A stretch of DNA of 64,000 nt from the NCBI RefSeq assembly GCF_026210795.1, contig NC_089429.1, forward strand, positions 4,650,001 through 4,714,000, read 5' to 3'. The notes under the pieces are model-generated. The model saw nothing but the letters and a program-made list of their open reading frames with translations. It searched no databases and was not told where the DNA came from. The DNA is from Rhizophagus irregularis. Its lineage: Eukaryota. The translations under genes were made by a program, and so were the position numbers. Positions 32,892 to 64,000 of the stretch are shown piece by piece. Each line of letters opens with the position of its first letter. Positions within the stretch are counted from its first letter, which is position 1.

Positions 32892-33059
32892 GTTAAAATT
32901 TGATACCCTAAATCAATGACAAAGGATATTTCAATGGATTTACATAATATTTTAGTACAACATAGTACAACATATATATAAATATATGTTTTAATCCAAA
33001 AATCGGACCATTTTTAAATTTTCTTCTTTTTGAGAGAGAAAAAAAAAAATAACTTTAAA

Positions 33060-34454
33060 ATGACAAAAGGATTTTCACTAGAACAAGATTTAAGATTATT
33101 AATAAATAATCCAAAGTATAGCGACGTAGAAATTTTATGCGAGGATGAAAAGAAATTATATGGTTGTAGAGCAATTTTAGCAGCAAGGTCCGAAGTATTT
33201 GATAGACTGCTTTATAATGGAATGAAAGAAAGTTATGATAATAAAATTTCTTTTCCAAAGATTAATTCCGCAGGGATGGAAATCATATTAGAATATATTT
33301 ATACAGGTTCAGTTAAAGTAGAATCTTTAAAAAAAGATATAATTGAAGCTTTTTACGCTGCTGATTATTTTCAATTATCAGACCTTCAGGATTTTATTAC
33401 AAAATCAGTTAAGAATAATAATTTAGTTAAAAATTATTCACCGGAATTATTATCTAAAATTTCAGAAAAAATTCCATTAACAGAAGATAATATTCTTCTT
33501 AATTTATTGGTTGAAACAGTGGCAGTTATGCCATTAAATAATATTGAATTTGGTCGTTTATCTATTACAGGTCTTAAATATCTTTTATCTTGTACACATG
33601 AAAAAGAATTACCTTTTGCAACTCGAGAGTATGAAGTTTTTCGGTATAGTGCAATTCTAGCAGCAAAACAAGTCTCTGATGATACTTGTAAAGCTCTCAT
33701 AGAACTGCTACCAACCTTAGAACAAATAGAAAATTCAATCATAGTGGGAAATAAAATTATCACAGACCGGCAAAAAGTAGCTAAAGAATTAGAACCTTTG
33801 ATTAAGTTTATTGATTTCAGAAGAATTAAAACTAAGATATTAGCCAATTTTATTGAGCCACTAGAAATTATTCCAATTGAAATAATTTCTAATTCTTATC
33901 GACATGTAGCACTATTAAGTAATTTAGATTCATGCGATATTCGTGGAAAACCTATTAATCTATCCGGTTATGTTTGGGATGAGAAAGCATGTGGATCAAA
34001 ACTTATCATTGAAGATAACAGAAAAATTGTACGTACACCAATTGGTTGTGGTCACCAAAATGTTAGAGCCAAAATAGCATTAGAAAGTAATGACATTTTT
34101 GAATGGGATGTAATTATTGAAAAAGTTTGTTGTAATGCTTGGGTTGGAATATGTGCGTCAGAAAATTTTGATTATGATACCTTTGCAGGAATTCAACCTA
34201 CTGGATGGGTATTGGGTGACTGTGGTTTTTGTTATAATTCTAATAAAAAAGTAATGAATTACTGTCCTTCATTTGGTGATGGTACAATAGTTACAGTCCA
34301 TTTAGATATGAATAAAAGAACTTGCGCTTTTACAGTCAATGGTACAAAATATCCAGAAGTATCAGCTTGGAATAATCTACCATCAAAACTTTATCCAGTA
34401 GTATCATTATGTCATCCTGGTCGTTTTCGAATTCAACCTCATCAAAAAAGTTAA
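33060..34454 (+). CDS. BTB/POZ (+BACK-like) - SPRY/B30.2 domain protein, intact copy
   Basis: YSDVEILC...ILAARSEVFDRLLYNGMKES...ILEYIYTG (BTB); FEWDVIIE...WVGIC...VTVHLDMNKRTCAFTVNG...LYPVVSL (SPRY). Confidence 0.9.
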   Translation: MTKGFSLEQDLRLLINNPKYSDVEILCEDEKKLYGCRAILAARSEVFDRLLYNGMKESYDNKISFPKINSAGMEIILEYIYTGSVKVESLKKDIIEAFYAADYFQLSDLQDFITKSVKNNNLVKNYSPELLSKISEKIPLTEDNILLNLLVETVAVMPLNNIEFGRLSITGLKYLLSCTHEKELPFATREYEVFRYSAILAAKQVSDDTCKALIELLPTLEQIENSIIVGNKIITDRQKVAKELEPLIKFIDFRRIKTKILANFIEPLEIIPIEIISNSYRHVALLSNLDSCDIRGKPINLSGYVWDEKACGSKLIIEDNRKIVRTPIGCGHQNVRAKIALESNDIFEWDVIIEKVCCNAWVGICASENFDYDTFAGIQPTGWVLGDCGFCYNSNKKVMNYCPSFGDGTIVTVHLDMNKRTCAFTVNGTKYPEVSAWNNLPSKLYPVVSLCHPGRFRIQPHQKS

Positions 34455-39361: not shown

Positions 39362-40759
39362 CTAATTTTTTTGATGAAGTTGAATTCGAAAACGACCAGG
39401 ATAATTTAATGATCCTACTGGATAAAGTTTTGATGGTAGATTATTCCAAGCTGATACTTCTGGATATTTTGTACCATTGATTGTAAAAGCGCAAGTTCTT
39501 TTATTCATATCTAAATGGACTGTAATTATTGTGCCATCACCAAATGGAAGACAGTACTTTACTGCTTTACTAGAATTATAACAATCACCATTGGAACCCA
39601 TTACCCATCCAGTAGGTTGAAATCCTGCAAAGGTTTCATAACTTAAATTTTCTGACGCACATACTCCAACCCAAGCACAACCACTAACTTTCTCAATGAT
39701 GACATCCCATTCAAAAATGTCATTACTTTCTAATGCTATTTTGGCTCTAACATTTTGGTGATCACAACCATTTGGTGCATGCACAATTTTTCCGTTATTT
39801 TCAATAATAAGTTTTGATCCACATGCTTATTTATCCCAAACATAGTCGATTTCATTAATTTGTCGTTTTCCACGAGTATAACTTAAATTTAGATTATTTG
39901 GTAGCGCCGCATATCGATAAAAGTTAAAAATTATTTCATTTGAAACAATTTCTAGTGGCTCAATAAAATCGGCTAATATCTGAGATTTAATTCTTCTGAA
40001 ATCAATAAACTTGACCAAAGGTTCCAATTCTTTAGCAACTTTTTGACGATCAGTAATAAATTTATTTCCCACTTTGATTGAATTCTCTACTTGTTCTAAA
40101 GTTGGCAACAGTTCCTTGAGAGTTTTATATGCATCATTAGAAACTTGTTTTGCTGCTAGAATTGCACTATACCGGAAAACTTCATATTCCGGGGTTACGA
40201 AAAGCATTTCTTTTTCATGCGTAATAGATAAAAGACATTTAAGACCCGTAATAGACAATCGACCAAATTCAATATTATTTAATGACATAATTGCTACTGT
40301 TTCAACCAATAAATTAAGAAAAATATTATCTTTCGCTAATGGAATTTTTTCCGTAATTTTAGATAGTAATTCCGGTGAATAATTTTTAACTAAATTAGTA
40401 CTCTTAACCGTTTTTGTAATAAAATCCTGAAGGTCTGATAATTGAAAATAATCAGCAGCGTAAAAAGCTTCAACTGCATTATCTTTTGTTAAAGATTCTT
40501 CTTTAACTAATCCCGTATAAATATATTCTAAAACAATTTCCATTCCAGAGGACTTAATCTTTGGAAAAGAAATTTGATTATCGTAATTCTTTTTCATCCC
40601 ATTATAAAGCAGTCTATCAAATACTTCGGACCTTGCTGCTAAAATTGCTCTACAACCATGTAATTTCTTTTCATCTTCACATAAAATTTCTATGTCACTA
40701 TACTTTGGATTATTTATTAATAATCTTAAATCTTGTTCTAACAAATATCCTCTTGTAAT
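39362..40759 (-). pseudogene. BTB-SPRY paralogue with in-frame stop and lost ATG
   Basis: TAA at 39827-39829 where the 44-45 kb copy has TCA; ATT at 40757-40759 where the paralogues have ATG. Confidence 0.8.
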
Positions 40760-41421
40760 TTTTCAAGAAACTTTTTTTTTTTAGAAAAAGTAATACTTTT
40801 TTTCAACCCATTTATGAATATTTATATGTTCTGTACTATGTTGTACTAAACCAAAAAATGCATATCAAACGAATTTTTAGCTGCGCCTTCATAATAATTT
40901 TGCACGTGCTTTGGTCACGTGTTCTCCAAACTTTCTCGTATTTTTATTGAATCAATAAAATACGATTTCCCTAAATACAATTAAATATGTGAGAAACCCA
41001 CATTGGTGTAATTTACATACTAATTCTTTAATATTAAACGAGATTAAGAACTTTGGTTAATGACATTATTAATCGGTCTTTAACCAATACATTTTAATAC
41101 ATAATTTTAAATTTCAATGGATTAGCCGATAATTTTATTGAACCTTACTATTTCTATGTTAATTATTTATGCTTTGTAATTTTGGTTTAAAATAAACTTC
41201 ACCTCCTCAAATAGATCTTATTTTACAAAACCATTTTAGGAACCATACCTTTTATAGAGTAATAATTTTTTTTGTCTTAGAAGCAACAACTGTATTACGC
41301 AAATATAAATAAAATCCCAAAGAATCATCTTTTTCTTATTAAAGAGAAATTAATATATTAAATCCACCATTAACGTAAAAATAATACAAACCTTTAAACG
41401 CTAAATATACGCACTTGAAAG

Positions 41422-44028: not shown

Positions 44029-45426
44029 CTAATTTTTTTGATGAGGTTGAATTCGAAAACGACCAGGATAATTTAATGATACTACTGGATAAAGTTTTGA
44101 TGGTAGATTATTCCAAGCTGATACTTCTGGATATTTTGTACCATTGATTGTAAAAGTGCAAGTTCTTTTATTCATATCCAAATGGACTGTAATTATTGTG
44201 CCATCACCAAATGGAAGACAGTACTTTACTGCTTTACTAAAATTATTACAATAACCATTGGAACCCAATACCCATCCAGTAGGTTGAATTCCTGCAAAGG
44301 TTTCATAATTTAAATTTTCTGACGCACATACTCCAACCCAAGCACAACCACTAACTTTCTCAATAATGACATCCCATTCAAAAATATCATTACTTTCTAA
44401 TACTATTTTGGCTCTAACATTTTGGTGATCACAACCATTTGGTGCATGCACAATTTTTCCGTTATTTTCAATAATAAGTTTTGATCCACATGCTGATTTA
44501 TCCCAAACATAGTCGATTTCATTAATTTGTCATTTTCCACGAGTATAACTTAAATTTAGATTATTTGATAACGCTACATATCGATAGAAGTTAAAAATTA
44601 TTTCATTTGAAACAATTTCTAGCGGCTCAATAAAATCGGCTAATATCTGAGATTTAATTCTTCTGAAATCAATAAACTTGACCAAAGGTTCCAATTCTTT
44701 AGCAACTTTTTGACGATCGGTAATAAATTTATTTCCCACTTTAATTGAATTCTCTACTTGTTCTAAAGTTGGCAACAGTTTCTTGAGAGTTTTATATGCA
44801 TCATTAGAAACTTGTTTTGCTGCTAGAATTGCACTATACCGAAAAACTTCATATTCCGGGGTCACGAAATGCATTTCTTTTTCATGTGTAATAGATAAAA
44901 GACATTTAAGACCCGTAATAGACAATCGACCAAATTCAATATTATTTAATGACATAATTGCTACTGTTTCAACCAATAAATTAAGAAAAATATTATCTTC
45001 CGCTAATGGAGTTTTTTCTGTAATTTTAGATAGTAATTCCGGTGAATAATTTTTAACTAAATTAGTATTCTTAACCGTTTTTGTAATAAAATCCTGAAGG
45101 TCTGATAATTGAAAATAATCAGCAGCGTAAAAAGCTTCAATTGCATTATCTTTTGTCAAAGATTCTTCTTTAATCGATCCCGTATAAATATATTCTAATA
45201 TAATTTCCATCCCGGCAGAATTAATCTTTGGAAAAGAAATTTGATTATCATAACTTTCTTTCATCCCATTATAAAGTAGTCTATCAAATACTTCGGATCT
45301 TGCTGCTAAAATTGCTCTACAACCATGTAATTTCTTTTCATCTTCACATAAAATTTCTATGTCACTATACTTTGGATTATTTATTAATAATCTTAAATCT
45401 TGTTCTAACGAATACCCTCTTATCAT
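44029..45426 (-). pseudogene. BTB-SPRY paralogue with in-frame TGA between BTB and SPRY parts
   Basis: TGA at 44530-44532 where the 39-40 kb copy has CGA; frame otherwise open. Confidence 0.75.
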
Positions 45427-45616
45427 TTTTTCAAGAAATTTTTAGAAAAAATAATACTTTTTTTTTCAGCCCCATTTATGAATATTTATATATTCTGTAC
45501 TATGTTGTACTAAACCAAAAAAAAGCATTACGTGCATATCATATGAATTTCAGTTAGCTGCGCCTTCATAATGAACCGATTAGATTCGGCAGGTAGTAAG
45601 TAAGTAACGGAAATTG

Positions 45617-48211: not shown

Positions 48212-50631
48212 CTATCTTAAAATATTACAATTTCGCTTATTATGACCCATATCACCACAATTTCCACATTTATATTGTTTACTATTTACTGAAGTCGTAG
48301 TCTTTTCTTTTTCATGGCTTGCTTTAATTCGTTTTGTACCCTTCGGGCATCCTTTAGACCTGGTTTGTTTATTAGGATTATTGAGAATAAAAGGAAAATT
48401 TTCCTTATCAGATTCATCATCTTTTGTATCTTCTAATTCGATATTTTCATTTTGTTCTTCATCTTGTTCTTCATCAACATCTTTTAAGTAATTCTCCAAA
48501 ATATGTATTATACGTATATCCCTTTTACTAACAGCTTTCATAGTAGCTTTATGTGATAAGCCAGCAATTTTACCATATAATTGTATGTCTGTAAGTTGTT
48601 CATGCCGAGTAATAAATTCTTGTGATGTTTTGCAAATTGCAGTTAAAAATGGAACATTATGTTGAGAAATAAGAGGTGTAATCTCATTTTCAAATTTGCT
48701 AGCAACTAAAAATTGCTCTTTACTAGGATCTTTATCTCTATAATACCATTGTGAAGGAATAAGTCTTAAATGGAATCTTGCTGCAGGACTACGAAGCATT
48801 ATTTGAAAATAATGCCTGCAAATAATTCCTCGATTAATAAGAGATAGACAAGAGCAATAATGAGATCCATTTATTAATAAGATAATAAAATGTTTCTCAA
48901 CAAGTTTGTTTTCAACATTTACAGCCCACATAGATGAAATTTGATCTTTATTAATGTTGGAAATCATACATGCTGCAGTTATTTGACGAGCATCAGATAC
49001 ATCTTCCAAATATTGACCTAATAAGAGATCATACTGCAAACACATGTAATAGCAATGTTAAATCAAGTAAAATACAAACATAATAAGTATACAATTATTA
49101 TTGTAATATATACTTTATCAAATTCATCAATTACTTCTTGGGTAACTTGTACAGCATTATAAAAAACACACTGACGAATTTCATCTCTTTGAAGTTCTAA
49201 TATGGCAGGAGGCAAATATTCTTCAAGTTTTTGGTTAATAGAAGTAAACATGAACGCAGCAGTGGAAATCTGAGTAGGCATACAGGGAATAGCAGCTTTC
49301 CATAACACAAGTTGATATTTTTTGTTTTCTGCCATTTGTCTTCTCTCTATTACATCCCCAAGTTCACATAAAGAAATATTAGAGTTAAAAATATAACTTT
49401 TAATCCATGCATTAATGCTTTCTACAGGAGAAGATGCATGGAGTCCTGCAGTAAATTGGTGACATGTCCAAGGATGAGCCCATGATTCTTTAGTATTATA
49501 AAGAGTATTTATCAAATATTGCTGTATTTCAGGATATTGAGTAATTAATTTTCTCCATTCTGATTCAAAGGAAAGTGTGTTTAGTGTATTACGTACAGCA
49601 TGAAATTTTGTAAAAAACTCTTGAAATTTATTTCCAATTAGTTTTTGAACCTTTTTAATCAAATTTTGGCTAATATGAAAAGTGCAATGCATCGGGTATG
49701 TGGTAGGAAATGTAGACCTAATCGCAGCATATACAGCTGGATCTGCATCTGTCATTATTACTTGTGGATACACATTATTTGTTGCTAAATTGAGTTGTTC
49801 AAATGACCATTCATGTGATTCTTTTGTTTCATCAATTAATAATGCTTGTGCAACAAGTCTTACATTCCGATTTTCATCAAGAATAATAAATAAACTTAAA
49901 GCCATCTCATACCTATTGGTTTTACAAGTTACATCTTGTACCACAATATCTGAATACCGATACCATAATTCTAACTGAGATGGCGTCATCCAGAATAAAT
50001 GTGTAAGAGTATTATTATTATCAAATTTGATCGCAACCTTCCACATTGGATTATTTTGTGATAATTCAAGTAATTTCGTATACAATTTAGCTGCATCATT
50101 ACTATCATCTTTATTTTGTGGACGAAAATGTTGAATTGCTTTATACAAATCATTATCATAAATTATTTGTCCTGGGAACTTTGCTTCAAGATATTGTCTT
50201 TGTGTAGCAGCTCCCATTCTGCATTTAATAGTAAGAAATTCAATCTCCTTCATAATTTCAGGAGGTATGTATTTGTTATCTCCAAATTGAATGATATTAG
50301 GATTAAGATTATGTGAATGGATATCATGAAGTGTTGTAATATAAACATATTTAAAAGGATTTTTAGAGGTAGGTTCTGATAAATTAATATGCCAAGCACA
50401 GCCTAGACGTTTTGTTGTTGTCTCTTTATTGGATTTTGTAACATAATTACCATGATGTTCACATTGTGCAGTACGTCTACGAAAAGTTCCATCAGATTTT
50501 TTCTCAACACGACTATATATGATATTAAACCCTTGCTGCTTTGCCCGACTTTCAATAGTTTCAAATGCTTGCTTCCAAGTGGTGAAAGCCTTTCCTTGAT
50601 ACAAAACTGGTTCAGAGTTTTCTTGTTGCAT
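48212..50631 (-). CDS. FAR1-type Mutator/MULE transposase, two exons
   Basis: FAR1-like C...CxWHI...HxH region, DVTCKTNRY, VIMTDAD, HCTFHI, PVESINA, SWIM finger CSC...GIICRH and CGNCGDMGHNKRNC knuckle. A phase-0 GT-AG intron at 49034-49113 joins the two ORFs. Confidence 0.9.
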
Positions 50632-51590: not shown

Positions 51591-52060
51591 AGTCGTCGGG
51601 CTGGATGTGGGAGGTGCAAGCACCACCCACCTCTGGGTCTAACGACCCGTCGCAGTACCTATTTGGACCTTGCAGGTCCCAGGAATCCCCATATATACTA
51701 CCACCATGGCCACAGTGGCCATGGCTGGTCACACTACTTTCCAACTCCTTTTTTTTATCCATTTTTTCTTATACATAAAACTACTATGACCACTATGACC
51801 ACTATGACCAGACTACTAAAAAGTGGATAAAAACGCGAATAAAGCCAAAATCAGACAGAATATCCGGTCATAGTACTGGCCACAGTTCGAAAAACTTATG
51901 ATAATACTATGGCCACCTTAGTTAGCCCCTCAGGCTCCAAAACCCGATTTAAGCTATGACCACCCTTTATCTACATACCTGGGACACCGAACTATGCCAC
52001 TGAACTATGACCGCCGAACTATGACCGCCGAACTATGACCACCGAACTATGGCCACTTTC
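51591..52060. repeat. Non-coding left terminal region (probable TIR) with reiterated ACTATG(A/G)CC motifs
   Basis: About ten ACTATGACC/ACTATGGCC copies, including tandem GAACTATGACCGCC units near 52002-52055. The matching right TIR is not in the window. Confidence 0.6.
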
Positions 52061-52113
52061 CCCGTCAGAAAAAATAAGTAATTGAACAATGGGTATACCA
52101 TAAGTAATATACA

Positions 52114-52551
52114 ATGATGAACTTACACGCAGCCACTTATCTTGCCAAAAACCTCGGACTTGATCTTGTAGACATCTATGGAATCCGTAAATGGATCCAA
52201 ATGCGGGCATCGCCCCTCAACGACCCGGATATAGTAGCAGAAATAGTCAGAAACCTTCCGGCCAAAGAATTTGGAAAGCACCTCAAAATAAACAGACTCT
52301 GGTACAATTGTTGTAAAGCCGAGTTGTGGAAGCGATATGAGAAAGCCGAGGAGGCATACGACAGGGCAGTAGAAAAGAAGGAAAAAGCGGGGGATGCTCT
52401 TGGTCAATCATTTGAGGAAGAGGGTATTGGAAATCGTGAACTTCATGAGCTTAATTGGAAGGAGTATCAAAAGGCTTATAAAGAGTTAACGGACGCTAGA
52501 AAAGAGCAAATAATGGTAAGGTGGGCTCTTGAGCGGTGTGGATTTCACTAG
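52114..52551 (+). CDS. Small F-box-like protein with helical C-terminus
   Basis: PDIVAEIVRNLPAKEFGKHLKINRLWYNCCKAELWK fits the F-box pattern. Confidence 0.55.
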   Translation: MMNLHAATYLAKNLGLDLVDIYGIRKWIQMRASPLNDPDIVAEIVRNLPAKEFGKHLKINRLWYNCCKAELWKRYEKAEEAYDRAVEKKEKAGDALGQSFEEEGIGNRELHELNWKEYQKAYKELTDARKEQIMVRWALERCGFH

Positions 52552-52786
52552 ATATACGTGGATTGAAAAGGGGGAAGGGAAGATTTAGAGCAGTCGTAAA
52601 GGTTCGTGGTTTATAGTTTTTTTTTACCCCTAAAAGATAACCAGATATAACCGGAGGACCGCAGAACCGCAGGACCACAGGACTACAGGAGGGTAACCTG
52701 GTAGGAGTGCAGATCTTTGGAAAAAAATATTCGGCAATTGAAGATTAGGTAACTATAAATTAGTACTCGATTTGATAGAACAAAAA

Positions 52787-55215
52787 ATGGCCGCTCAAGT
52801 TCCAGCAATCTTTAACCCCAACAACCGTTTCTTCTACGATGACCTTCTTAAAAAGTGTATAGGTACACACACAAAAGAAAGCATCAATTCAGCAATCTCA
52901 GCTTCTGTGGCTTTCATCACCACGAAGTCCGGCATGTGGATCAGAAAAAGAAGGCTTATAATGGAAGCATATACTTCGAGTTTGCTGCAGATCTCAAGGG
53001 AATTTCTACTAAGCACAAGGTAAGTATTCGGTCAGATGCAGGAGAAGATGATGGTATGACCACATCCATCAAGTTAAAGGACCTTCTTATCCAAGCCTCA
53101 GTCACAAAGATCTGTTATACAGATGTTAATTTCATGCCTTATCCCCCAAATGCACCAAAGTATAATCCTGAATTCTTCAATCTCTTTCTAGGTTTCAGGG
53201 CTCAACCCGCTGAGCACATCAAACTGAACCTAGTTAATCCAATCATTCGACATGTTCATGAGGTATGGTGTGCAGAGGACAAGCAGTTAACCACGTACAT
53301 CCTCAACTGGCTTGCATTTCTGGTTCAAAATCCTGACAAAAAACCCGGTACAGCAATTATTATGCGCAGTCCCCCCAGATGTGGTAAGAATATCTTAACC
53401 GATTTTATCGGAGAACGTATTCTCGGCCGTGAAAACTTCCTCTCCACTACGCGTCTTGAAGATGTAATGGGAAGGTTCAATGCGGCTGTTCGTGCCAAAA
53501 AACTCATTATCCTCAATGAATGTGATATGACAGGCAAGGAATGGCATGGAGCAAATAATTGACTCAAGAGTTTAATCACTGAGCCTTACATCTCTATCGA
53601 GGAAAAAGGAATAGATGTGAAGGTTATTGATGACTTTGCTGGCTACATGATCCTGAGTAATCATGCTATGCCAATTCGCATAGAAATGGGAGATGAAAGA
53701 TTTGTAGCTCTTAACGTCTCAGCCAAATATAAGGGTAATCGAGAATACTTCAGTTCTCTAGTAAAAGTATTAGAAAATCCAGATACAGCCAGTTCCTTCA
53801 TGTCCTATCTACTTAGCCGAGACTTAACTAGCTTCAATCCCCGATCTATTCCTGATACTCAAATGAAACAGGAGCTAATTGAAGCAAGTATTCCAAATCC
53901 CCAGCGTTTCATACAATATTACCTTGAAATGATGTGGCCCGACAATTGTGATACACTTGAAATTCCTTGTACAAATTTCTATAGCACTTACCAGAATTGG
54001 TGCAGTGAGAAGGGCGAAAACAAAACACTTAGTGATAATAAGTTTGGTATGGAGATTAAGCAATTTATTCCTAAAACTCGCCCAAGACGTTCAGGTGCTA
54101 GAATAAACTATTACATACTAGATAAAGCAAAAATTGCGAAGAATTTTAGTAGAGTAATCCAGGAGACACAAGACATACAGGAAGCACAGGTAGATCAAGA
54201 GGAAGTAGAGCCAGTTGTTGAGAAACCTGCTAAGGAAAAACCCGCTTCTGTCGAGAAGAAGCCTACTGAAGAGAAACCAGTTTCCAAAAAGACTCCACCA
54301 CCAGTACCACTTAAGCCCGATTGCTTGAAGGTAAAACCCGCACCTGTCATCAATGAGGATCCTATTCCTGAGGAATCTCCAGCTCCTATAGAGTCAGATA
54401 CTGATGAACCTATAGATAGCTTCTCGGACTGTTATCTATCTGATGAGGAACCTGATCAAGAAAATGAGCCGCCTGCTGAGGAACCTGCATTTAAAGCTGA
54501 TGATGACTATGACGTTTTAGATGACTTGCTATCTGACTCAGATTTTACAACTGTGAACCCAGCTCCTGAACAACAACCCGAGTCTCTCGCAGAATCTTCT
54601 GCATCTGTCACTAAGCCTGACCCAGAACCGGCTCCTGAAGAGCAACCTATCCCAGAACCCGACACAGAACTAGAAGTTGACTGGGACCCTGAACCAAAGG
54701 AAGGTACTCGAGCACACTGGGCTTGGCATGAAAGGCACCGATGGGATTATAAGCCATGGGTCAAGAATTCAAAGGACCAGGTCTTCAATGATCTTTACAA
54801 TACAGGTAAGGATTTATGGGCTAAGTACCAAAACGCGTCAGACGAGTATGACTGGGAAATACTCGCGTTTGAAGTAGAGGAATGTCCCACAACACGTATT
54901 GAAGACGAGTACCAGTACTACCTTAGGGAAGTAGTAGACCGCTTCAAGGACTGGATCGAATATAATGGATACTTATCTAAAACACCTAGCCGTAAAGAGC
55001 TTGCAGATTTAATAAGAGCATATAAGGAGGATCATGATGCCGAGATTATCCCTACTACCTCCGGTTATGAAACTATGAAGATGAATAAGGGTAAGGCACG
55101 AGAAATCCCAGAGGAGTGTCCAAAGACCGAGATGGAACGCCAGTGGGAGGCCGCTAATGGATTTGTAGACGAGCTGGATATTGATGAGGCCTGTGATATG
55201 ATTGACTCCTTTTAA
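52787..55215 (+). pseudogene. Superfamily-3 (D5/NrS-1-like) helicase with long acidic, Pro-rich tail; disrupted
   Basis: ILNWLAFLVQNPDKKPG, Walker A SPPRCGKN, Walker B IILNE, motif C MILSN, winged-helix-like FYSTYQNWCSEKG. Frameshift near 52945 and in-frame TGA at 53560-53562. Confidence 0.8.
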
Positions 55216-55298
55216 TAAGATAAGCGCCTCTTAGTTATCTTATATTTTTTATATAAAAAACCTATATTACAATTGAATACAATTCATAGTTATATCAA

Positions 55299-57181
55299 AT
55301 GGCCTATTCAAAAATTGCACGCGCTTTACCTACAAGACCAGATATCAAAGAACTACAGTATTCAGGCGCAAGATTTTCTAGAGGAGCTATTGCCAGACTT
55401 GGACAGCAACTCCAATCCCGGTATCCGACACATAAATTTCAGATTCTGCTCCCCTATGAAAACTGGAAACCCGGTGGATGGACATCAGGAAACCAACCAG
55501 CCAGCCTCTTCTCACTCTTGGACCACTATGATGAAGCACAACTACCAGATGATGCAGATCCTGATTACTTTGAACGATTCATAATTTATGTGAGAGATGC
55601 TCCACCGGTTGCAGGGGGATGCAATGGAGAGCTAAATGATTGCCTGTATGAATGCCTGAAGCATATCTATGGTATATTCTCTAAAATACCCAAGACTATA
55701 AAAAAGCCTGAATATATCAAAAAGGCATTAGGTCTCAATCGTGATGCTCCAGTTCCAGTCTCATATATGGATAAGATTGAACAACTTGCAGGAAGCCTTG
55801 CACTTAATATTGTAGGGGATTCCACTCGAATTTCCAAGAGCAAATCTGACAGACGTGCAACCCTCATCCTATCTGAAGGCCACTACTCTCTTGCACTGAA
55901 TCCCGGAAGACTTCACCCTAGTAAATTAGATAGAAAACAAAAGTCTCCCTTTGTTTATCGTGAAGATGGGGTTAATAATGTAGTAACAATATACAATGGT
56001 AAGACAGTTAAGTCTCTTACAGTTGGACAGTTTCAGAAAGGTAAGAACTCTGATAGTTACTCCTTCATCCCTATCGAGAAGAATTGTAAAACTGGAATAT
56101 ATGAAACACTTGAGGAAACATACCAGAGGATCCATGAAGAGCGGGATTCCTTCCTACAGGCTACAAAGAAGTTCGGTCTAGGAATCGACTTATCTTACCA
56201 CAACTGGTCATACAAGAGAACTGCACTCTGGCTTTTTGAACGGTTTAGTGTAGGGGTTCCAGCCAATGATCCTCTTGACCCAGTCGAAGCAGAGTGGATA
56301 AGTGATGCAATGATGGGAGGTCTTATCTGGGCAGACAATGAATGGAAGGGCTATGGAAGGCAATACGACGTGACAAGTTTGTATCCAAGTATTCAGCAAT
56401 CAAATGCAAACTTTCCAATCCGACAAGGTAAGTTTCAAATACTCAAAGACTTTGTAGACCATAGAGGTTATGCCTTGTATGGATTATTTCGTGCCAGCTC
56501 CCAGAGAGCGCCCCAAAGGGCAAGGTAAGTGGTAATGACATTCTCTTCCGACAGAATAAGAGGGGAGTCTATACATTCATTGACTTACAACGAGCAAAGA
56601 AACTTGGTCTCGATATACAGTTAATCCAGGATGGAAAGCCAAATGCCTTGATATATGACAGAGAAGCAAGAATTCCTGGGACTGTAATATTTGGTGAGTA
56701 TGTCCACTTTCTCTTCAATATAAAGAACCAGGGTGGCGTGGCCGGTCGTGTTGCAAAGAGAGTTCTCAATACACTATGGGGAGCACTCTGCCAGAGGAAA
56801 CGCAATTACAAGACACTCACCACAGATCAAACAGATCCATTCAAGTTTCCAGAAGGCCACACACTTGACTCCATCGTACCAGTAGGATCTGACCAGTGGC
56901 GATTCCAGTTCACAAACCCAGGTAGTCCCTTCAAGGGTGAGTATCCTAGGATCGCTCCATTCTTATTAGCACATGGACGGAAGACGACTTCAGAGTTATT
57001 AGAACCATATAAGGATAAAGTACGACGCATCCATACAGATGGATTTATTCTAGAGGAACAGCCGAGTAGTCCTACACTTATCACTTGTCCAGAAAATGCA
57101 TCCAAAGCATTGAAAGCTCTCAAGTTTGAAACCGCAGGATACTGCCATGTGAAAAATGCAAACAAGGTTATCTGGACATGA
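55299..57181 (+). pseudogene. Family B DNA polymerase, protein-primed type, split by a frameshift
   Basis: Motifs YDVTSLYPS, AKRVLNTLWG and IHTDG; removing 26 nt (56496-56521) gives one ~618-aa frame. Confidence 0.85.
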
Positions 57182-57294
57182 TTGCCAAGAATGCGGTTGG
57201 ATTTACAGTAGGTATATATATTTTTTCTTGCTTGAATGTAAAGTCAATTTGAAGATTCCTATTTATTACAAAGTACAAAAAAGTATAAGGAATC

Positions 57295-57765
57295 ATGTCA
57301 ACATATACCGAATTAGCAAGCATTATTAACAGCACTGACAGCATTAGTGATAAAGTTATTTATGATGCATCACACAATCAGTTCACCATTGTCTCTGATG
57401 AAACTGTCCTTAAGATTATCCGTGCATTGAAAGACACTATAGTAGTCGCATTAGTATCTGGGTTTAGCAAAACCAGCTACCTTGTCCAGGATCATGTGAA
57501 GTATATCAAGCGAATCCAGACGGCAAATTCTCCTGTATCATATGTGAAGTTCGTGGCCAGAAAACTCTTCCCAGATAATGCAGCATATACTGCTAAGATA
57601 GCAAAGATTCGTGAATCATACAAGAATAAACAAGCTCTTTTAGACAAACTTGAGGCCCTCTTCGAGTTGTATTATAATGTAACTAAGGACTCATTAACAG
57701 GTTCCCCAAAGCGAGCTGTCACTATGAATGAGGCTGAGAAAACCTTAGCAGAACTTCTTGCATAA
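57295..57765 (+). CDS. Hypothetical protein (156 aa)
   Basis: ATG ORF in the gene-dense element with the shared upstream motif. Confidence 0.7.
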   Translation: MSTYTELASIINSTDSISDKVIYDASHNQFTIVSDETVLKIIRALKDTIVVALVSGFSKTSYLVQDHVKYIKRIQTANSPVSYVKFVARKLFPDNAAYTAKIAKIRESYKNKQALLDKLEALFELYYNVTKDSLTGSPKRAVTMNEAEKTLAELLA

Positions 57766-57858
57766 GTGGCTCCTGTATGAATTTAGTTTATATTTATTAT
57801 CCATTTGTAATGGGCATACAGTAATTGAAGATGGCTATAGTATAAGTAACATAACATC

Positions 57859-58275
57859 ATGTTGGACCGATTACCAGTAGAAATAGTCGAACGCATTGTT
57901 GCAAAGATCCCAGATACTGACCTTATTGCAGCGAGTAAAGTAGATAGTGTGTGGTGGCAGGAGGTTCGTCAAGAAGCATATAAGAGATGGAAAAATTATG
58001 CTACTACAATTGGGCATGTCCAAGCTCTTGGAAAGCCGTTTGAAAAAAGGAATATTGACTGGATATCATTTGAAGATGTAAACGACTTCTATAAAAGATG
58101 GATAGACCGCCTCACCGAGGATCAGCTTTATATTATGGAGAAAATGCTTAGGAATGGGATGGTCGTGGACCCCCAAGAGAGGGAAACCATAGAGCATGCA
58201 TTAAGTGAACAAAGATGGGGAGGCGACCCTTGGGGACTGAACTGGGAGTGGAACGAATGGACTCAACAGGAGTAG
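57859..58275 (+). CDS. F-box protein
   Basis: N-terminal LDRLPVEIVERIVAKIPDTDLIAASKVDSVWW fits the F-box consensus. Confidence 0.75.
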   Translation: MLDRLPVEIVERIVAKIPDTDLIAASKVDSVWWQEVRQEAYKRWKNYATTIGHVQALGKPFEKRNIDWISFEDVNDFYKRWIDRLTEDQLYIMEKMLRNGMVVDPQERETIEHALSEQRWGGDPWGLNWEWNEWTQQE

Positions 58276-58276
58276 C

Positions 58277-58435
58277 TTATTTATCGGGTATCCTCATATT
58301 TCTCGACAAGGACTGATGACCATGTAACCTTATCATCAGGTATCCTTGCATTTTTTCGACAAGGATTGATGACCATGTAACTTTATCATCAGGTATCCTT
58401 GCATTTTTTTCGACAAGGACTGATGACCATGTCAC
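58277..58435. repeat. Three tandem ~52-bp units forming alternating hairpins
   Basis: TATCATCAGGTATCCTTGCATTTTTTCGACAAGGA(C/T)TGATGACCATGTAAC repeated. Confidence 0.85.
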
Positions 58436-58493
58436 TTGGTTATTGTAAATTGAAGAAAACTATTAGGTATGTAGACACATACAGAAAAAAGAC

Positions 58494-59075
58494 ATGTCTT
58501 ACCCTTATATAGCTAACCCTATAACTGGACGTCCAATTATTATCGGTGGAGATACCTTTAATCGAATAGTTATGGAATCCCATGATTATATTGATGGAAG
58601 GCTTGTCCGTAGACAAACTGCACCTCCACCTGAAGAGCAACCTGTATATTTAAATACAGATACAGGACGTTATGTTCGACGTGGTACTAGAACATATCAT
58701 AGACTGATTGAGAGTGACTATGAGGTAGTTGAGGATTACTACCTTGTCCATTATGAAGAAGAGGCGCTTATAGAGGAAATCATCAATGAAACACGCTATA
58801 ATGAGGAAAATCTTGATGGGCAGCGGTTAACTTTCAATGATATACAACAAATCAGGGCCGCTATTCAGGCTGACCAAGATGAATATGATGATTTTATCTT
58901 ACAGCAGGATACGACTAACGGGACACCTTCCTCCGGTCCTTCCGGTCGTCCACGAACTTTGGAGGACCATACCCCGAGACTTGCAGAGCTTAATATTGAG
59001 TTGTGTAGGGAATGTCTCATGCCTGTAAGCCCAAGTGACTTAACGGACAAGTTGTGCAAGGACTGCTCTGAATAG
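58494..59075 (+). CDS. Protein with two NPxTGR-type motifs (2-cysteine-adaptor-like) and C-terminal CxxC...CxxC
   Basis: NPITGRPIIIGGDTFNRI and NTDTGRYVRRGTRTYHRL; CREC...CKDC. Confidence 0.65.
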   Translation: MSYPYIANPITGRPIIIGGDTFNRIVMESHDYIDGRLVRRQTAPPPEEQPVYLNTDTGRYVRRGTRTYHRLIESDYEVVEDYYLVHYEEEALIEEIINETRYNEENLDGQRLTFNDIQQIRAAIQADQDEYDDFILQQDTTNGTPSSGPSGRPRTLEDHTPRLAELNIELCRECLMPVSPSDLTDKLCKDCSE

Positions 59076-59120
59076 TTACTTAATTTTGAATAATTCTTTT
59101 TTACATAAAGAAAGATAGCC

Positions 59121-59681
59121 ATGTCAACATCAATCGTAATAAACCAGTACCAAAACTGTGGAGTAATCACTCCAAAAACAGCACATAGAGGATTATCCAG
59201 TGTATTATACAGACAGATTATAAAGAAGATTAGTGATGAGAATGACCCTCTACAAGCCTTGGGACTTGCTAGGGATAAGTTAGTTCAGATCATTCGTCGG
59301 GCAAGTAATGTGGACTTTACACAATTGTTTACACAAAGACTGGATATGAAAATTATAGATGGAGAGCCATATGAAGATATTAGGAAGTGGCTTCTCGAAC
59401 AGCTTATAGCCATAGGTTGTGATAGTGGAGAAATTGCCTTATATCAATTTCTAAGGGGTACATATCCAGATGGTATCGACGAGCCTTTCAATACATTCTA
59501 TAAGAACTATGTAAATCATATAAGTAATTCAATGACTAAGAACTTTGCTTCTCGTGCCTTAGGAGCAATAGGGTTGAAGGCTAAGATGTTAAGGATTGAC
59601 TTTGAAGGCCGTAAAAAAAGTGCTATGATTCTTAGAGCTTCTGCAAACGAATTACTTGATATTCTCACAAGATACTATTAA
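59121..59681 (+). CDS. Hypothetical protein, possible C-terminal winged-helix DNA-binding region
   Basis: 186-aa ATG ORF; FNTFYKNYVN...TKNFASRALGAIG resembles D5 C-terminal helices (weak). Overlaps the ATPase stop by 17 nt. Confidence 0.6.
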   Translation: MSTSIVINQYQNCGVITPKTAHRGLSSVLYRQIIKKISDENDPLQALGLARDKLVQIIRRASNVDFTQLFTQRLDMKIIDGEPYEDIRKWLLEQLIAIGCDSGEIALYQFLRGTYPDGIDEPFNTFYKNYVNHISNSMTKNFASRALGAIGLKAKMLRIDFEGRKKSAMILRASANELLDILTRYY

Positions 59682-60888
59682 TCCCTACTTGTAATGCTCG
59701 ACGGTCCATGTGGCTCTTAGAAAAGATCTGTAGAAGGACTTCAATACCTTCTATTATTTTTTTATTATCCAGAGGGCGACTAGACTTCAGGGCTTCATAT
59801 CGGGAGAATAACTCCTTCACATTCTCAGTTTTCAGAGTTTCAGTCTTTGCAGTCCTACCCTGTACTTTTGCTAAGAAATCCTGAAAGTCAGCTCCTAGGG
59901 TCTTACCAGAAAGTCCATAAGCTTCCCGAAAGACAAATTTAATCCAGGTATCTGTATTCTTGGCTAAGACACCAGGTACAAGTAAATGTTGACGCTCTTT
60001 AGGGGATGGAAATACCCGAGCAAATTCAATCAAGTGTCCACCTTTTTTTGCTTCAAATACAGCTTTCTGACCATAGGGACTAAACTTGGATTGAACTGTG
60101 ATTGAACTGGGTTCAGACTGAGATCGAACTGGGTTCAAACTTGGATCAAACTGAGATTGAACTGAGATCGAACTAGGATTGAACTGAGATTGCTCTGTGA
60201 TCGAACTGAGACTAGTATCCCATCTTACTCGAATGGACAGTGGATCACTTTTGGACCGTCTAAGATCAAACACTACAAATTCACGTTGCAGAGTAAGATC
60301 ATCAATTACTGGTGCTAATGACTCTGATTCTTCTGTATATTGGCGGATGATTCTCTTGGTATCTGTAAGGCTCCCATGACCTCCATGCAGTGAGATGTAG
60401 TTAACATTTTCTCGAATAGCCTTAGGAATGGCAAAGAATCTTTGGGCTACATAAATACATGAAATATTTTTGTGTCGTCCATGTGTAAAGTAACCAGTGA
60501 TGAGATCCTGGATTTTTTTAGGTGCATCCATCAGATCCTCAAAGATTACCACAGTAGCTTGAGTAGGGTCGAAGGAGTCAATCTCTGGAATCTCACTATG
60601 GGTTACTGCAGTGAATGGGATCTTCTCCTCTTCGAAAAAATCATGTACAACTGCCCACTTTGGCTCGTCAAGATATCTGCCAACTAAAAGTACTGCATCA
60701 CATAGTACATACCGATTACCATCCTCCTTTGCCTTCTTGTCACCCATTAACAAGTTAATAATCATAGTTGTCTTACCTGAGTCTGAGCTACCTGCTACGG
60801 CTAATCGAAAGGGCCATGATGGAGCAAACTCATTGCCTTGTCTTGAGTCGGTCGTGTACTCATCCAAATTGTATACATAAAGATCCAT
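59665..60888 (-). CDS. A32-like (FtsK/HerA superfamily) genome-packaging ATPase
   Basis: Walker A GSSDSGKT, Walker B VIFED and THGRHKNISCIYVAQRFFAIPKAIREN (GRH and sensor Q), as in Polinton/NCLDV packaging ATPases. Confidence 0.9.
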   Translation of the reverse strand: MDLYVYNLDEYTTDSRQGNEFAPSWPFRLAVAGSSDSGKTTMIINLLMGDKKAKEDGNRYVLCDAVLLVGRYLDEPKWAVVHDFFEEEKIPFTAVTHSEIPEIDSFDPTQATVVIFEDLMDAPKKIQDLITGYFTHGRHKNISCIYVAQRFFAIPKAIRENVNYISLHGGHGSLTDTKRIIRQYTEESESLAPVIDDLTLQREFVVFDLRRSKSDPLSIRVRWDTSLSSITEQSQFNPSSISVQSQFDPSLNPVRSQSEPSSITVQSKFSPYGQKAVFEAKKGGHLIEFARVFPSPKERQHLLVPGVLAKNTDTWIKFVFREAYGLSGKTLGADFQDFLAKVQGRTAKTETLKTENVKELFSRYEALKSSRPLDNKKIIEGIEVLLQIFSKSHMDRRALQVGINSIL

Positions 60889-60919
60889 TTGAATTTTATT
60901 CTAACTTAGTTTAAATACT

Positions 60920-61717
60920 ATGTCGACATCAACACCAATTCCAGTTTATACTCCTTCAGAACCTACTGGACCGCCTCCTGCACACTTGGCTAATGAAGAA
61001 GACGATGATGAATTAGTTAGAATACTAAAGGCTCATGCAAATTTATTGACTACCAGGGGTCGTTTAACTGTTGATTCAGAGATACAGGAGGCAAATAATC
61101 AAATCAAACATATTATTAATATATTAATGTATCGCTGTAAAGCAAAACATGAAGAACTTGGTATTACAAAAGATTTGTTAGTTTTTGCACAAGGTAAGAT
61201 AAATGCATTTGATGAAACGTTTACTAATTTAGAACGTCAATTAGTTATTATACGTGCTGCCAATGATAATTTCATAGAAGAAAACCATAACCTGCAAAGA
61301 GATTATGATACTATGGTAGAGCTTCGTCGACGGGCTATAGGTGAACGTAATCAGGCACGACATGAACGTAATGTATTACAAGCAGATTATACTCAAGCAG
61401 TAATGGATCGTAATGAGGCTCAAAATGCTGTGAATCGTGGTAATATCCTTCTAAATCATTGGCGGCTGAGGGCTACTCGGACTGGAGGACAACTTGTATT
61501 AGTTAATGCGCAACTTGGACAGGTTAATGTACAGCTAGCACATGCTAATAATAGGGTGCGTTTTGGGATTCAGACATTAGGGAGACTTAGAAATAGACTT
61601 TTCCAACAGATAGCTGCTCTTAGAATTCAGGTACAATGGTTTCGAATTAGACAATTGAACCCTCTTCCACCTCTTTTAAACAATCCACTAGAGACGATAT
61701 GGCTACCACTGCAATAG
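60920..61717 (+). CDS. Coiled-coil protein upstream of, and overlapping, the Gag-like ORF
   Basis: 265 aa with heptad-like ERNQA/ERNVL/DRNEA repeats. Confidence 0.75.
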   Translation: MSTSTPIPVYTPSEPTGPPPAHLANEEDDDELVRILKAHANLLTTRGRLTVDSEIQEANNQIKHIINILMYRCKAKHEELGITKDLLVFAQGKINAFDETFTNLERQLVIIRAANDNFIEENHNLQRDYDTMVELRRRAIGERNQARHERNVLQADYTQAVMDRNEAQNAVNRGNILLNHWRLRATRTGGQLVLVNAQLGQVNVQLAHANNRVRFGIQTLGRLRNRLFQQIAALRIQVQWFRIRQLNPLPPLLNNPLETIWLPLQ

Positions 61718-63153
61718 GATTGCCAATTTTTGAGGGTAAAGCTACTGATGATATTGATACATTTGTTAGGCTTTATATGGGTTATCTTGATACTATTAAT
61801 CTTAACCCGTATGCTGCTGGAGGGCCACCAGAGTCTTGGAAAAGAGCTATGGGTATACTTAGAAGCTGCATGGCCGGTGAAGCGGCTGAATGGTTTGATC
61901 GAGAAATTACAGGAAAAAATTGGGAACTTTCTAGTATTAATTCAGCTGGTGGAGCTAATTTAGCTGCTTTTGTAGCATTAGTAATACCAGAAGGTGCAGG
62001 AGGACCAAATGCAGGTACCTATGTAAATGGGTCTGAAGCACAAATCTATTCAAGAGATATAAATAATGCATTAGCAACTATTAGAGCAACATTTATTCCT
62101 ACCCATGATTTAATAGGTGGAGATAAAGCTTGGGGAAGAGCTGGTGCTCGTCCGACAGATAGAGTTGCTCCAGCTACTGCAGATGCTGGTGTTGCTGCTG
62201 CTAATAATCATCCTATAGTTTTTCCAGGTATTAAACCTAACCAGGCGCTTTATTGGCTTAGAACACAATTTCCAACTATTTTAGATGAAAAGAAACGTAT
62301 CCGTTTTAACAGTCTTTATCAGGAAAATGAGCCAGTTGATGCATTTTATAGAACTGTAAAGAGGGCTGGAAAATTACTAAAACTAACTGATGATCTTATT
62401 ATCGACCAGTTCTTTAGAGGTCTTTCGGCTGATAATATTTTTGAAGCAGAAAGGTTTAGTAATCTTAATCCTGATGACTTGGTTAAACATCTGAGAAATT
62501 TAGAACGAAGAAGGGCTGAAATGCGCTTGGGGTTACAAGATAGAAATCGACGACTTCAAGCAGATTACAGTGATGTAACTCAACCTCCGTTAGGAAAACA
62601 GGAACCTGTCGTACTGACATCAAAGTCATCTGGGGTTACTCAAGAACAATTACAAAAGTTACTTAAGGCTCAAGCTGAGGAACTTACCAAGAATTTTCAG
62701 GTGCAATTTAAACAATTACAAGCTCGGCCAGTTCGTAATCCACCAGTCTATAGACAGCAGATTAAACCTGTTCGACCAAAACCACAGAGACGTGTTGTTC
62801 AGGATCCTCAGGATCCTGATTGGGATGATGGTTATGTAGATCATGATGTTGGTGATGACCCTGATGCTCCTGAGTGGACTTTGGATGATCATCAAAATGC
62901 TATTGATCTTATTATGGGATATAAACGTGGGACGTCTAAAATACTTACAAAACAACTTCAGAAGGCTAAAGATAAACGTGATGATCTGGATTTGGCCCGA
63001 GCAATGAGAAACCTCGATCTTAATGATGATACTATGGACATTGATACTGCGAGTTTTGGTGAAAAGGTAGAATTGAGAGAAAAAGATGGTGATGTCTATA
63101 TGGTTCGTGTTGGGTCAAAAAAAAGTAGGTTCGAGTATCTCAAAACTTCTTAA
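61699..63153 (+). CDS. Retrotransposon (Ty3/gypsy-type) Gag/capsid-like protein
   Basis: LPIFEG...IDTF, MAGEAAEWF, major-homology-region-like LYQENEPVDAFY and DQFFRGL in the canonical order; no CCHC knuckle. Confidence 0.72.
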   Translation: MATTAIGLPIFEGKATDDIDTFVRLYMGYLDTINLNPYAAGGPPESWKRAMGILRSCMAGEAAEWFDREITGKNWELSSINSAGGANLAAFVALVIPEGAGGPNAGTYVNGSEAQIYSRDINNALATIRATFIPTHDLIGGDKAWGRAGARPTDRVAPATADAGVAAANNHPIVFPGIKPNQALYWLRTQFPTILDEKKRIRFNSLYQENEPVDAFYRTVKRAGKLLKLTDDLIIDQFFRGLSADNIFEAERFSNLNPDDLVKHLRNLERRRAEMRLGLQDRNRRLQADYSDVTQPPLGKQEPVVLTSKSSGVTQEQLQKLLKAQAEELTKNFQVQFKQLQARPVRNPPVYRQQIKPVRPKPQRRVVQDPQDPDWDDGYVDHDVGDDPDAPEWTLDDHQNAIDLIMGYKRGTSKILTKQLQKAKDKRDDLDLARAMRNLDLNDDTMDIDTASFGEKVELREKDGDVYMVRVGSKKSRFEYLKTS

Positions 63154-63865
63154 GTCGTCCCCAAATAAGACAGCAGTTAGCTCTTCTAGTGTGCCATTGA
63201 AAGGCAAAGCAACCCCTGTTAAGATTCCTGTGAAAGTTACTGGTAGTAAGTTTACACCTGCAAAAGCTGTTACTAAGAATGACTTATTAAGCCTGTTAAG
63301 GTCTGCAGACTTTAGGAAATTACTCCGTGAGATTCTTCAGGAGGAGTTATTGTCTGCTAGAAAAGTCACAGAGATTCCGGAGGACCTAGTTGAGGAGGAA
63401 CAAGAAGAGGATATCAGGGTAGATGATCCTATGGATATTGACATAGCTCGTTTAGAGAATACTAAAGATCTTTTAGCACTGGATGGGGAGGTTAATGGGA
63501 TAGCAATTCAGTGTTTAGCAGACACTTGTGCTAATGCGTCTTTTATTCAGAGAGAAGCTGCTGAGGAATTAGGGTTGGATATTGACAAGAGTATTACATA
63601 TAACATATCTGGTGCTTCAGGAACAGGTAGGACATTCGGCATGGTAAAGGGAGTGACAATCAAACTTACCCCTGATTATGCTATCACTGAGGACCTTGCA
63701 GTCTTAAGTGGTTACAAGCATAGGGAAATTGGGTTAAGCCGAACGTGTCTGAAACGTTACAATTATGATGTCCATGAATCACGTGAACATATAGCCTTTA
63801 CCTGTGATGGGAAGAATGTTTTTATCCCGATAGTTCCTGATGCTAATCGAGGGGATAAAAAATAA
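63086..63865 (+). CDS. Retropepsin-like aspartic protease, in the +1 frame relative to Gag
   Basis: GEVNGIAIQCLADTCANASFI (DTG-like DTC), flap ISGASG and IGLSRTCL (ILGxD-like). True start uncertain. Confidence 0.8.
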   Translation: MVMSIWFVLGQKKVGSSISKLLKSSPNKTAVSSSSVPLKGKATPVKIPVKVTGSKFTPAKAVTKNDLLSLLRSADFRKLLREILQEELLSARKVTEIPEDLVEEEQEEDIRVDDPMDIDIARLENTKDLLALDGEVNGIAIQCLADTCANASFIQREAAEELGLDIDKSITYNISGASGTGRTFGMVKGVTIKLTPDYAITEDLAVLSGYKHREIGLSRTCLKRYNYDVHESREHIAFTCDGKNVFIPIVPDANRGDKK

Positions 63866-63890
63866 GACCCTTTAATTCTTCTATTTTTTT

Positions 63891-64000
63891 TTATTCCCAA
63901 AATTTGCGAATTAAGTCAGGAACATCCTCCTTCAACTGGTCAGCAGGTTCCCAAGTAGCCTCAGTGTCTGGATAGCGCTCCCACTTAACCAAATACTGGT
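63891..64000 (-). CDS. C-terminal chromodomain of a gene entering from the right, probably the Polinton-type integrase
   Basis: Manual translation QYLVKWERYPDTEATWEPADQLKEDVPDLIRKFWE* matches the chromodomain consensus YLVKWxGY...TWEP; not in the ORF track. Confidence 0.8.
   Translation of the reverse strand, partial: QYLVKWERYPDTEATWEPADQLKEDVPDLIRKFWE

Follow-up and report, generated by a model that had tools for sequence, protein, structure and literature searches.

Polintons (Mavericks) and mavirus-type virophages combine a family B DNA polymerase that uses protein priming (pPolB), an rve chromo-integrase, an A32 packaging ATPase and terminal inverted repeats (TIRs) (definition from the part of PMC4028283 used here). 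Polintons or Mavericks have been reported in the mycorrhizal fungus Rhizophagus irregularis, with the Maverick class among recent expansions (PMC11296320 and PMC8647823, in part), and the portion of 10.64898/2026.06.19.733378 drawn on here reports Rhizophagus A32 ATPases from fragmented assemblies. The element described here occupies the right-hand end of a 64-kb stretch of R. irregularis DNA (the window: 64,000 nt, contig NC_089429.1, positions 4,650,001 to 4,714,000, assembly GCF_026210795.1) and its family shows all four hallmarks. Unlike Polintons and mavirus, the elements of this family have no recognisable open reading frame (ORF) for a double jelly-roll (DJR) major capsid protein (MCP) or for adenain, and carry a Gag and a retropepsin instead. 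We find that Gag-Pro is a real, family-wide and selected feature of the element. At roughly even chances, we read the family as TIR-bounded DNA transposons of mycorrhizal fungi that have Gag-Pro beside an A32 ATPase, have no recognisable jelly-roll gene and pack their DNA in a Gag shell.

Mavirus-related pPolB elements flanked by TIRs (pMVRE group 1) have been described in Rhizophagus, Gigaspora and Diversispora (PMC13215967). The parts of that source used here list 110 ‘Rhizophagus’ entries, many of 13-15 kb with TIRs of 500-600 bp, assign DUF5906 specifically to group 1, and describe a large fungal lineage without structural proteins as ‘likely to be plasmids’. Among the listed rows of its domain table (1-35 of 111), which counts co-occurrence in complete elements, retropepsin_like occurs with pPolB 57 times, with RT_LTR 5 times and with MCP once, and Retrotrans_gag with pPolB just 8 times; the words ‘retro’, ‘protease’, ‘ATPase’ and ‘gag’ have no occurrence in the main text. 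Judged by host, size, TIR length and domains rather than by sequence, our elements probably belong to the same family. They share with it TIRs, a similar length, a DUF5906 helicase, a chromodomain, DUF5679, the lack of recognisable jelly-roll proteins and a retropepsin, which the published table records. The difference is one of reading: as far as the consulted parts of PMC13215967 go, its elements lack structural proteins, whereas we read a Gag-Pro shell.

A Gag/retropepsin combination in a DNA element has probably been drawn once before, in Fig. 5 of Starrett 2021 (PMC8502044; preprint 10.1101/697771), where a legend entry names retroviral Gag and retropepsin and the accessible text uses ‘gag’ once. 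That label also names a nucleocapsid (NC), which the Gags here lack, and the accessible text does not identify the element that bears the label; neither a family-wide test nor a frameshift or replacement argument was found in it. According to the part of Krupovic 2014 used here, nine Polintons without MCP also lack protease and ATPase; the present elements, by contrast, keep the ATPase. Nothing further on such elements was found in the accessible parts of PMC5751038, PMC4409740, 10.1101/2025.06.16.659975 and 10.64898/2026.10.13.758929. The elements themselves are probably already catalogued in print, and in the literature searched, which left subscription journals mostly uncovered, we found no paper arguing that Gag replaces the capsid in such elements.

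Gag and retropepsin as resident genes

In the window, the ATPase gene (59665-60888, minus strand) stands head-to-head with a coiled-coil ORF (60920-61717, plus strand), and the gap between them is exactly the 31 nt (60889-60919) given in an earlier note on this DNA. Gag (61699-63153, plus strand) and the ORF of a retropepsin-type aspartic protease (63086-63865, plus strand; domain at about 63440-63862, aspartyl protease E 1e-8, catalytic Asp present) follow. The protease stops at 63865 against a convergent gene, as the note had also said, and this gene is the C-terminal chromodomain of the rve integrase (63891-64000, minus strand), 69-77% identical to the tails of the relatives’ rve-chromo integrases. 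The note had proposed that Gag and retropepsin are resident genes of the element, and had named as points to check the presence of gag-pro in other copies and the absence of delimiting retrotransposon remnants.

To find relatives, metagenomic loci were scanned with a 47-sequence ATPase alignment, which gave 53 loci. A head-to-head arrangement of Gag and ATPase is present in 19 of the 53 and in all 14 that extend at least 1,400 nt upstream of the ATPase start. These 14 loci represent about nine distinct families, several being near-copies, and their ATPases are 48-64% identical to that of the window. Retropepsin lies downstream of Gag in the window and in the eight loci in which the protease is reached; the sequence that follows it is a convergent chromo-integrase in six, the contig end in one (L007) and a different gene in another (L025). 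The Gag-ATPase link also holds in a named genome, because P0239, an R. irregularis gene model with a second Gag subtype, opens with an antisense ATPase start (80% over 95 aa). On one of the contigs, L012, a bacterial-type ABC transporter (2041-3045) sits together with a 93%-identical ATPase, probably through chimeric metagenome assembly.

One alternative is that gag-pro is a leftover long terminal repeat (LTR) retrotransposon nested in a Polinton-like element. Gag and protease are indeed of the retroelement type, and nested retrotransposons do occur in such elements, to judge from the five RT_LTR-retropepsin_like cases among the table rows cited above. A nested insertion would not be expected at the same position across about nine divergent families, with neighbouring genes just 25-80 nt away in the window and in the listed loci. 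No LTR-like direct repeats more than 1.5 kb apart were found in the window block or the eight loci, and the YxDD pattern typical of reverse transcriptase (RT) occurred a single time among the 10 sequences scanned. Neither RT nor RNase H was found after the protease, whose ORF ends against a convergent gene in the window and in seven of the eight loci. Gag and protease also appear to be under purifying selection, dN being smaller than dS in 28 of 28 Gag pairs and pN smaller than pS in 15 of 15 protease pairs (crude estimates near saturation), and the element Gags form one clade (see below). We therefore rejected the nested retrotransposon, which we consider extremely improbable, and hold with high confidence that Gag-Pro is resident in the DNA element and not a passenger.

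Gag fold, phylogeny and the gag/pro junction

The window Gag falls short of the Pfam cut-off (Retrotrans_gag, E 0.031), so its identity rests on homologues and fold; Retrotrans_gag reaches E<0.1 in 9 of 24 alignment members, and L025 lies above the cut-off. A 61-row Gag profile matches the C-lobe of the PEG10 capsid domain (CA) at E 0.0015. An AlphaFold2 model of Gag residues 1-294 (pLDDT 84.7) has the two-lobed CA fold, which answers the note’s question about the fold of this ORF. Foldseek ranked PEG10, MLV and HIV CA at the top, PEG10 CA being the best match by both sequence and Foldseek, and in a VIA fold search the first 32 rows were all CA-family, among them HERV-K (Z 9.4, rmsd 3.1, 81 residues) and MLV (Z 8.9, rmsd 14.7, 184 residues, both lobes). 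Between families, Gag identity is 31-76% and both CA lobes are kept. The N-lobe carries an Ala/Gly/Asn-rich insertion of about 105 residues, which may project from the shell. In a PDB profile search with a deep Gag alignment, the top match, an unrelated RGP1 stretch within the coiled-coil part, was discarded.

The module resembles the gag-pro of Ty3/gypsy elements, retroviruses and PEG10 in its two-lobed CA, its retropepsin and a -1 gag-pro junction at an A-rich site. It differs from Ty3/gypsy elements and retroviruses in the large N-lobe insertion and in lacking RT, RNase H, LTRs and a zinc knuckle; furthermore, the element integrase is convergent and has no HHCC motif.

A tree was built from 52 of the 61 Gag rows (nine rows shorter than 200 residues were dropped) and rooted at the midpoint only. 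Element-type Gags fall on one side of a branch with support 92/87, and a subclade with support 97/95 contains all six ATPase-linked rows present. On the other side are Gags of Rhizophagus, Diversispora and Entrophospora that carry a fused N-terminal coiled coil. None of 19 element-type Gags has a CCHC zinc knuckle, against 7 of 14 among the fused sister Gags; the C-terminal 200 residues of the element Gags are neutral to acidic (net charge -9 to +1). Fused sister Gags such as P0285, P0291, P0296, P0297, P0301 and P0306 have the same CA insertion, often a CCHC motif and in several cases KK near the end. These sister Gags may correspond to the element labelled with NC in the Starrett figure, or to the donor retroelements.

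The note had described an ORF leading into Gag. The coiled-coil ORF does adjoin Gag, but it is out of frame with it, and the two overlap by 19 nt. The overlap with the Gag start recurs in most loci; in 4 of 18 the coiled-coil ORF ends earlier, and a Gag ATG is present in all 18. Because of this, Gag probably starts translation on its own. The coiled coils of the relatives are weakly similar to the N-terminus of the fused Gags (best E 6e-8), and the ORF is probably a detached N-terminal part of an ancestral Gag. A U UUA AAC site close to where the coiled-coil ORF and Gag overlap was considered for a second frameshift. This was rejected, since the site is unconserved and the overlap is missing from 4 of 18 loci.

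The frames of Gag and protease differ and meet at an A-run (A8 in the window, 63117-63124, plus strand). In all nine loci with a complete Gag end (five families), a run of A8-9 lies within the last five codons of Gag and the protease occupies the -1 frame, which is open from just 3-12 codons upstream. Such a run is found at 9 of 9 Gag ends versus 0 of 157 ends of other ORFs; of 16 stand-alone Gag proteins, 14 have a terminal lysine run. One extra A is present at this junction in contigs from all four runs compared, though not in every contig. The A-run is predicted to be a frameshift site. There are two possibilities for its action, (i) sliding on poly(A) before the stop and (ii) polymerase slippage, and both are open because no strong hairpin follows the run. 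The protease catalytic Asp is kept in nine of nine rows. Automatic R. irregularis gene models (P0121-P0240) join coiled coil, Gag and protease through many differing ‘introns’ across both frame changes; these introns appear to be artefacts of annotation that mask the frameshift.

Gene content of the element and of the window copy

The note had asked whether a DJR capsid and adenain lie further right. Two sister loci, L036 and L040 (98.8-99.8% identical over 5.2 kb), allowed a complete view. L036 begins with 123 nt that match L040 9718-9840 in inverted orientation at 100%, and because this match lies at the outer ends, the two together cover about 13-14 kb with a TIR at each end. Their ORFs comprise ORF106, DUF5679, rve-chromo integrase, protease, Gag, coiled coil, ATPase, an F-box-like protein, the ORF186 family, pPolB and D5 helicase. 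No unassigned ORF above 200 aa remains in the pair that could be a jelly-roll MCP, and there is no ORF for a DJR capsid or adenain. Across the 53 loci, 191 of 274 ORFs of at least 100 aa match the known set; 22 have no match and no overlap with a matched ORF, and these include no capsid, adenain or RT family. Adenain gave no Pfam match in any scanned ORF, and profile searches, the only kind used for the penton, gave no match among the small ORFs.

A divergent jelly-roll capsid module might nevertheless be hidden among the small ORFs, with Gag-Pro supplementing rather than replacing it. ORF186, ORF193, ORF156 and ORF106 are indeed without family assignment by profile search, which counts for this possibility and against replacement. 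All of them are at most 200 aa, too small for a double jelly-roll, ORF186 lacks the invariant His that an adenain would need, and ORF193 and ORF156 are absent from L036/L040; the single MCP-retropepsin_like co-occurrence among the listed table rows of PMC13215967 points the same way. We regard a hidden jelly-roll module as very improbable. Of the two options that the note had left side by side, replacement of the jelly-roll module by Gag-Pro is thus supported, and supplementation fits worse.

The ATPase (Pox_A32 E 3e-9) is an A32/FtsK-HerA packaging ATPase that has an additional helical domain at its C-terminus. Across the 47 homologues, near-invariance holds for Walker A, Walker B, GRHxN and QxF. 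With the extra domain left out, its model matches the STIV B204 packaging ATPase best (E 1.7e-6) and also A32 ATPases, and VIA groups it with FtsK/HerA proteins. PDB profile searches with the ATPase, PolB and ORF186 gave no useful match. An 11-nt tandem repeat lies within the ATPase linker (60055-60240).

Beside a short pPolB, the elements encode a superfamily 3 (SF3) helicase with DUF5906. The window copy of the D5-like helicase (52787-55215, plus strand; DUF5906 E 5e-6, Pox_D5 E 2e-7) has an acidic tail, and that of pPolB (55299-57181, plus strand) was recognised by alignment with five intact homologues and as a PHROG DNA polymerase. Both are disrupted, the helicase by a frame change near 52944 and a stop at 53560, pPolB by a frame change near 56514; contigs of other runs differ at these sites. 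Intact helicase ORFs of 760-780 aa are present in L035 and L040, and pPolB measures about 625 aa in relatives. PolB has no Pfam match in the window, and its L040 homologue matches DNA_pol_B_2. The full 364-aa integrase in L010, L024 and L036 combines rve (E 7e-6, below the cut-off) with a chromodomain above it. The note had called the element Polinton-like. Its pPolB, rve integrase, A32 ATPase and TIRs bear this out, but the replicon (short pPolB, SF3 helicase, chromo-integrase) looks mavirus-like rather than canonically Polinton-like.

In the set of L022 (2154-5681, minus strand), L021, L033 and L049, a second, unrelated pPolB of 1176 aa with an endonuclease VII domain replaces the short pPolB and its neighbours. 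L021 and L033, 98% identical to L022, carry Gag and ATPase. Because it is paired with two unrelated pPolBs, Gag-ATPase behaves like a morphogenesis module.

The note had treated the GC-richer block as one element, and both composition and its left edge agree. GC is 0.36-0.44 from 51001 onward and 0.16-0.32 in most flank bins (0.38 in a single one), and a 156-bp host repeat is interrupted at 51591. Contigs of run X1 have loose ends just before 51592, and those of runs X1 and X3 part from one another beyond 52107-52108, suggesting a left TIR of about 516 bp (51592-52107). It is called a TIR by deduction from these breaks, because the right TIR lies beyond the window. The note’s gene list (PolB, SF3 helicase, A32 ATPase, chromodomain end, Gag and aspartic protease) was likewise confirmed by Pfam, homologues and fold. 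The nearest named homologues of the window ATPase and Gag are R. irregularis gene models at 85-97% identity.

The remaining ORFs of the block are all on the plus strand. ORF145 (52114-52551) has no Pfam match above the cut-off; X1 contigs join 51958/52042 to 52721, and ORF145 with its surroundings (52114-52721) is skipped in some copies. One contig connects the element terminus to 52712 on the opposite strand. ORF156 (57295-57765) is found in some relatives. An F-box protein (57859-58275) scores E 0.0086 in the window and above the cut-off in L010 and L035. A 53-nt triple repeat (58299-58458) separates its gene from that of the conserved ORF193 (58494-59075), which has an N-terminal NPxTxR motif (2C_adapt-like) and a C-terminal Cys cluster. 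ORF186 (59121-59681), conserved family-wide, has no family assignment. To the left of the element lies a MULE transposase in two ORFs (48212-50631, minus strand). The flank also holds host BTB/POZ genes and one F-box-type gene (33018-34454, 39362-40762, 44029-45441 and 29314-31032); the BTB/POZ genes have a SPRY-like second part (SPRY assigned by eye), and two of them have an in-frame stop between the two parts. Genes of both kinds are typical of Rhizophagus expansions.

A proposed Gag shell for a DNA element

A32-type packaging ATPases are known to partner jelly-roll capsids, and CA shells to form around RNA. DNA replicons combined with the capsid of a different virus realm exist in cruciviruses and bidnaviruses, whose capsids are single jelly-rolls, and caulimoviruses hold double-stranded DNA (dsDNA) in a CA-type shell, with the DNA made by reverse transcription. 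To our knowledge, none of these pairs a packaging ATPase with CA.

We propose the following mechanism. An ancestor with a mavirus-like replicon and ATPase would have gained coiled coil-gag-pro once, from a retroelement-type Gag lineage of Glomeromycotina, and would have lost the jelly-roll MCP, penton and cysteine protease. Gag would be made alone, and a minority of Gag-Pro fusion, produced by slippage on the A-run, would set the ratio of shell to protease as in retroviruses. Gag would then assemble into a shell and be trimmed by the protease. With the RNA-binding knuckle lost, the ATPase would load the linear DNA replicated by pPolB, about 14 kb, and the chromo-integrase would re-insert the element DNA. 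Retention of an intact ATPase together with loss of the RNA-binding knuckle points to a DNA cargo. By calculation, 14 kb fits a cavity of 38-46 nm at 50-30% fill, which is near the size of Ty3 and caulimovirus shells. The parts of this proposal differ in strength. Formation of particles by Gag is probable, and ATPase-driven loading of DNA into the shell has an even chance at best. The most far-reaching version, in which these are dsDNA viruses with a CA shell, a frameshift-made retropepsin and A32-driven filling, a Varidnaviria-type replicon and motor, an Ortervirales-type capsid, no reverse transcription and many recent active copies, is tentative and falls somewhat short of even chances.

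Several observations weigh against the reading of a Gag shell filled with DNA. (i) We know of no portal or ATPase-driven loading for any CA lattice. (ii) ATPase and Gag distances are uncorrelated over eight elements (Mantel rho -0.04, p 0.56); module swapping would explain this missing co-divergence, though a tight physical partnership predicts otherwise. (iii) Foldseek gave no CA match at E<=0.001 for the Gag model, and its VIA Z scores, for a helical protein, are 8-9. (iv) In the window copy, A8 puts the protease in the +1 frame, and the sequence 3′ of the A-run shows no clear stimulatory structure (folding energies of -5.7 to -11 kcal/mol per 70 nt, computed without shuffles). (v) In L025, the protease is followed by a non-integrase gene, a convergent 165-aa ORF (106-600, plus strand). 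(vi) The full gene inventory is that of one TIR-to-TIR pair, two sister copies of unproven host. (vii) A search of proteins of 1564-4465 aa gave no RT-bearing long forms of the fused sister Gag, a negative of little weight.

The second of these observations also favours a different use of the particles. Gag-Pro would be resident and particles would form, but the ATPase would be a separate translocase; Gag would co-assemble with DNA-protein complexes or transcripts of the element, or act as a carrier from nucleus to nucleus within the coenocytic hypha. In known CA lattices, shell and cargo assemble together, and the extra helical domain of the ATPase counts in the same direction. The missing CCHC motif and the neutral to acidic C-terminal 200 residues, however, leave no obvious RNA handle, and the ATPase is head-to-head with the module in all 14 informative loci. 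We judge this alternative unlikely, though it is the most serious of those considered.

Alternatively, the element may be a capsid-less replicon of the plasmid or transpoviron type, perhaps carried by a helper virus, with Gag-Pro as an accessory such as an anti-retrotransposon restriction factor or a scaffold. This would agree with the description of the fungal lineage as ‘likely to be plasmids’ in the consulted part of PMC13215967 and with the presence of other accessories, e.g., F-box genes. It would also agree with our failure to find a relative in IMG/VR with the ATPase, Gag, the ATPase, PolB and integrase alignments or long pPolB queries. CA lobes, protease Asp and frameshift site are nevertheless kept together across families whose Gags are 31-76% identical, a restriction factor needs neither a protease nor a fixed ratio, and an intact packaging ATPase is useless without a shell. 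A capsid-less replicon is thus quite improbable.

If the Gag shell filled with DNA is the correct reading, a packaging motor can be joined to a CA lattice, and a CA lattice can take in dsDNA; DNA loading, if real, would represent a novel route to a DNA virus particle. Even without DNA loading, a DNA transposon that took up gag-pro long ago and has kept it stably is unusual. The finding would change how more than 100 catalogued ‘plasmid-like’ elements of arbuscular mycorrhizal fungi are to be read (the 110 Rhizophagus entries in the part of PMC13215967 used here), and it offers a possible route by which DNA may move between nuclei or strains of these fungi.

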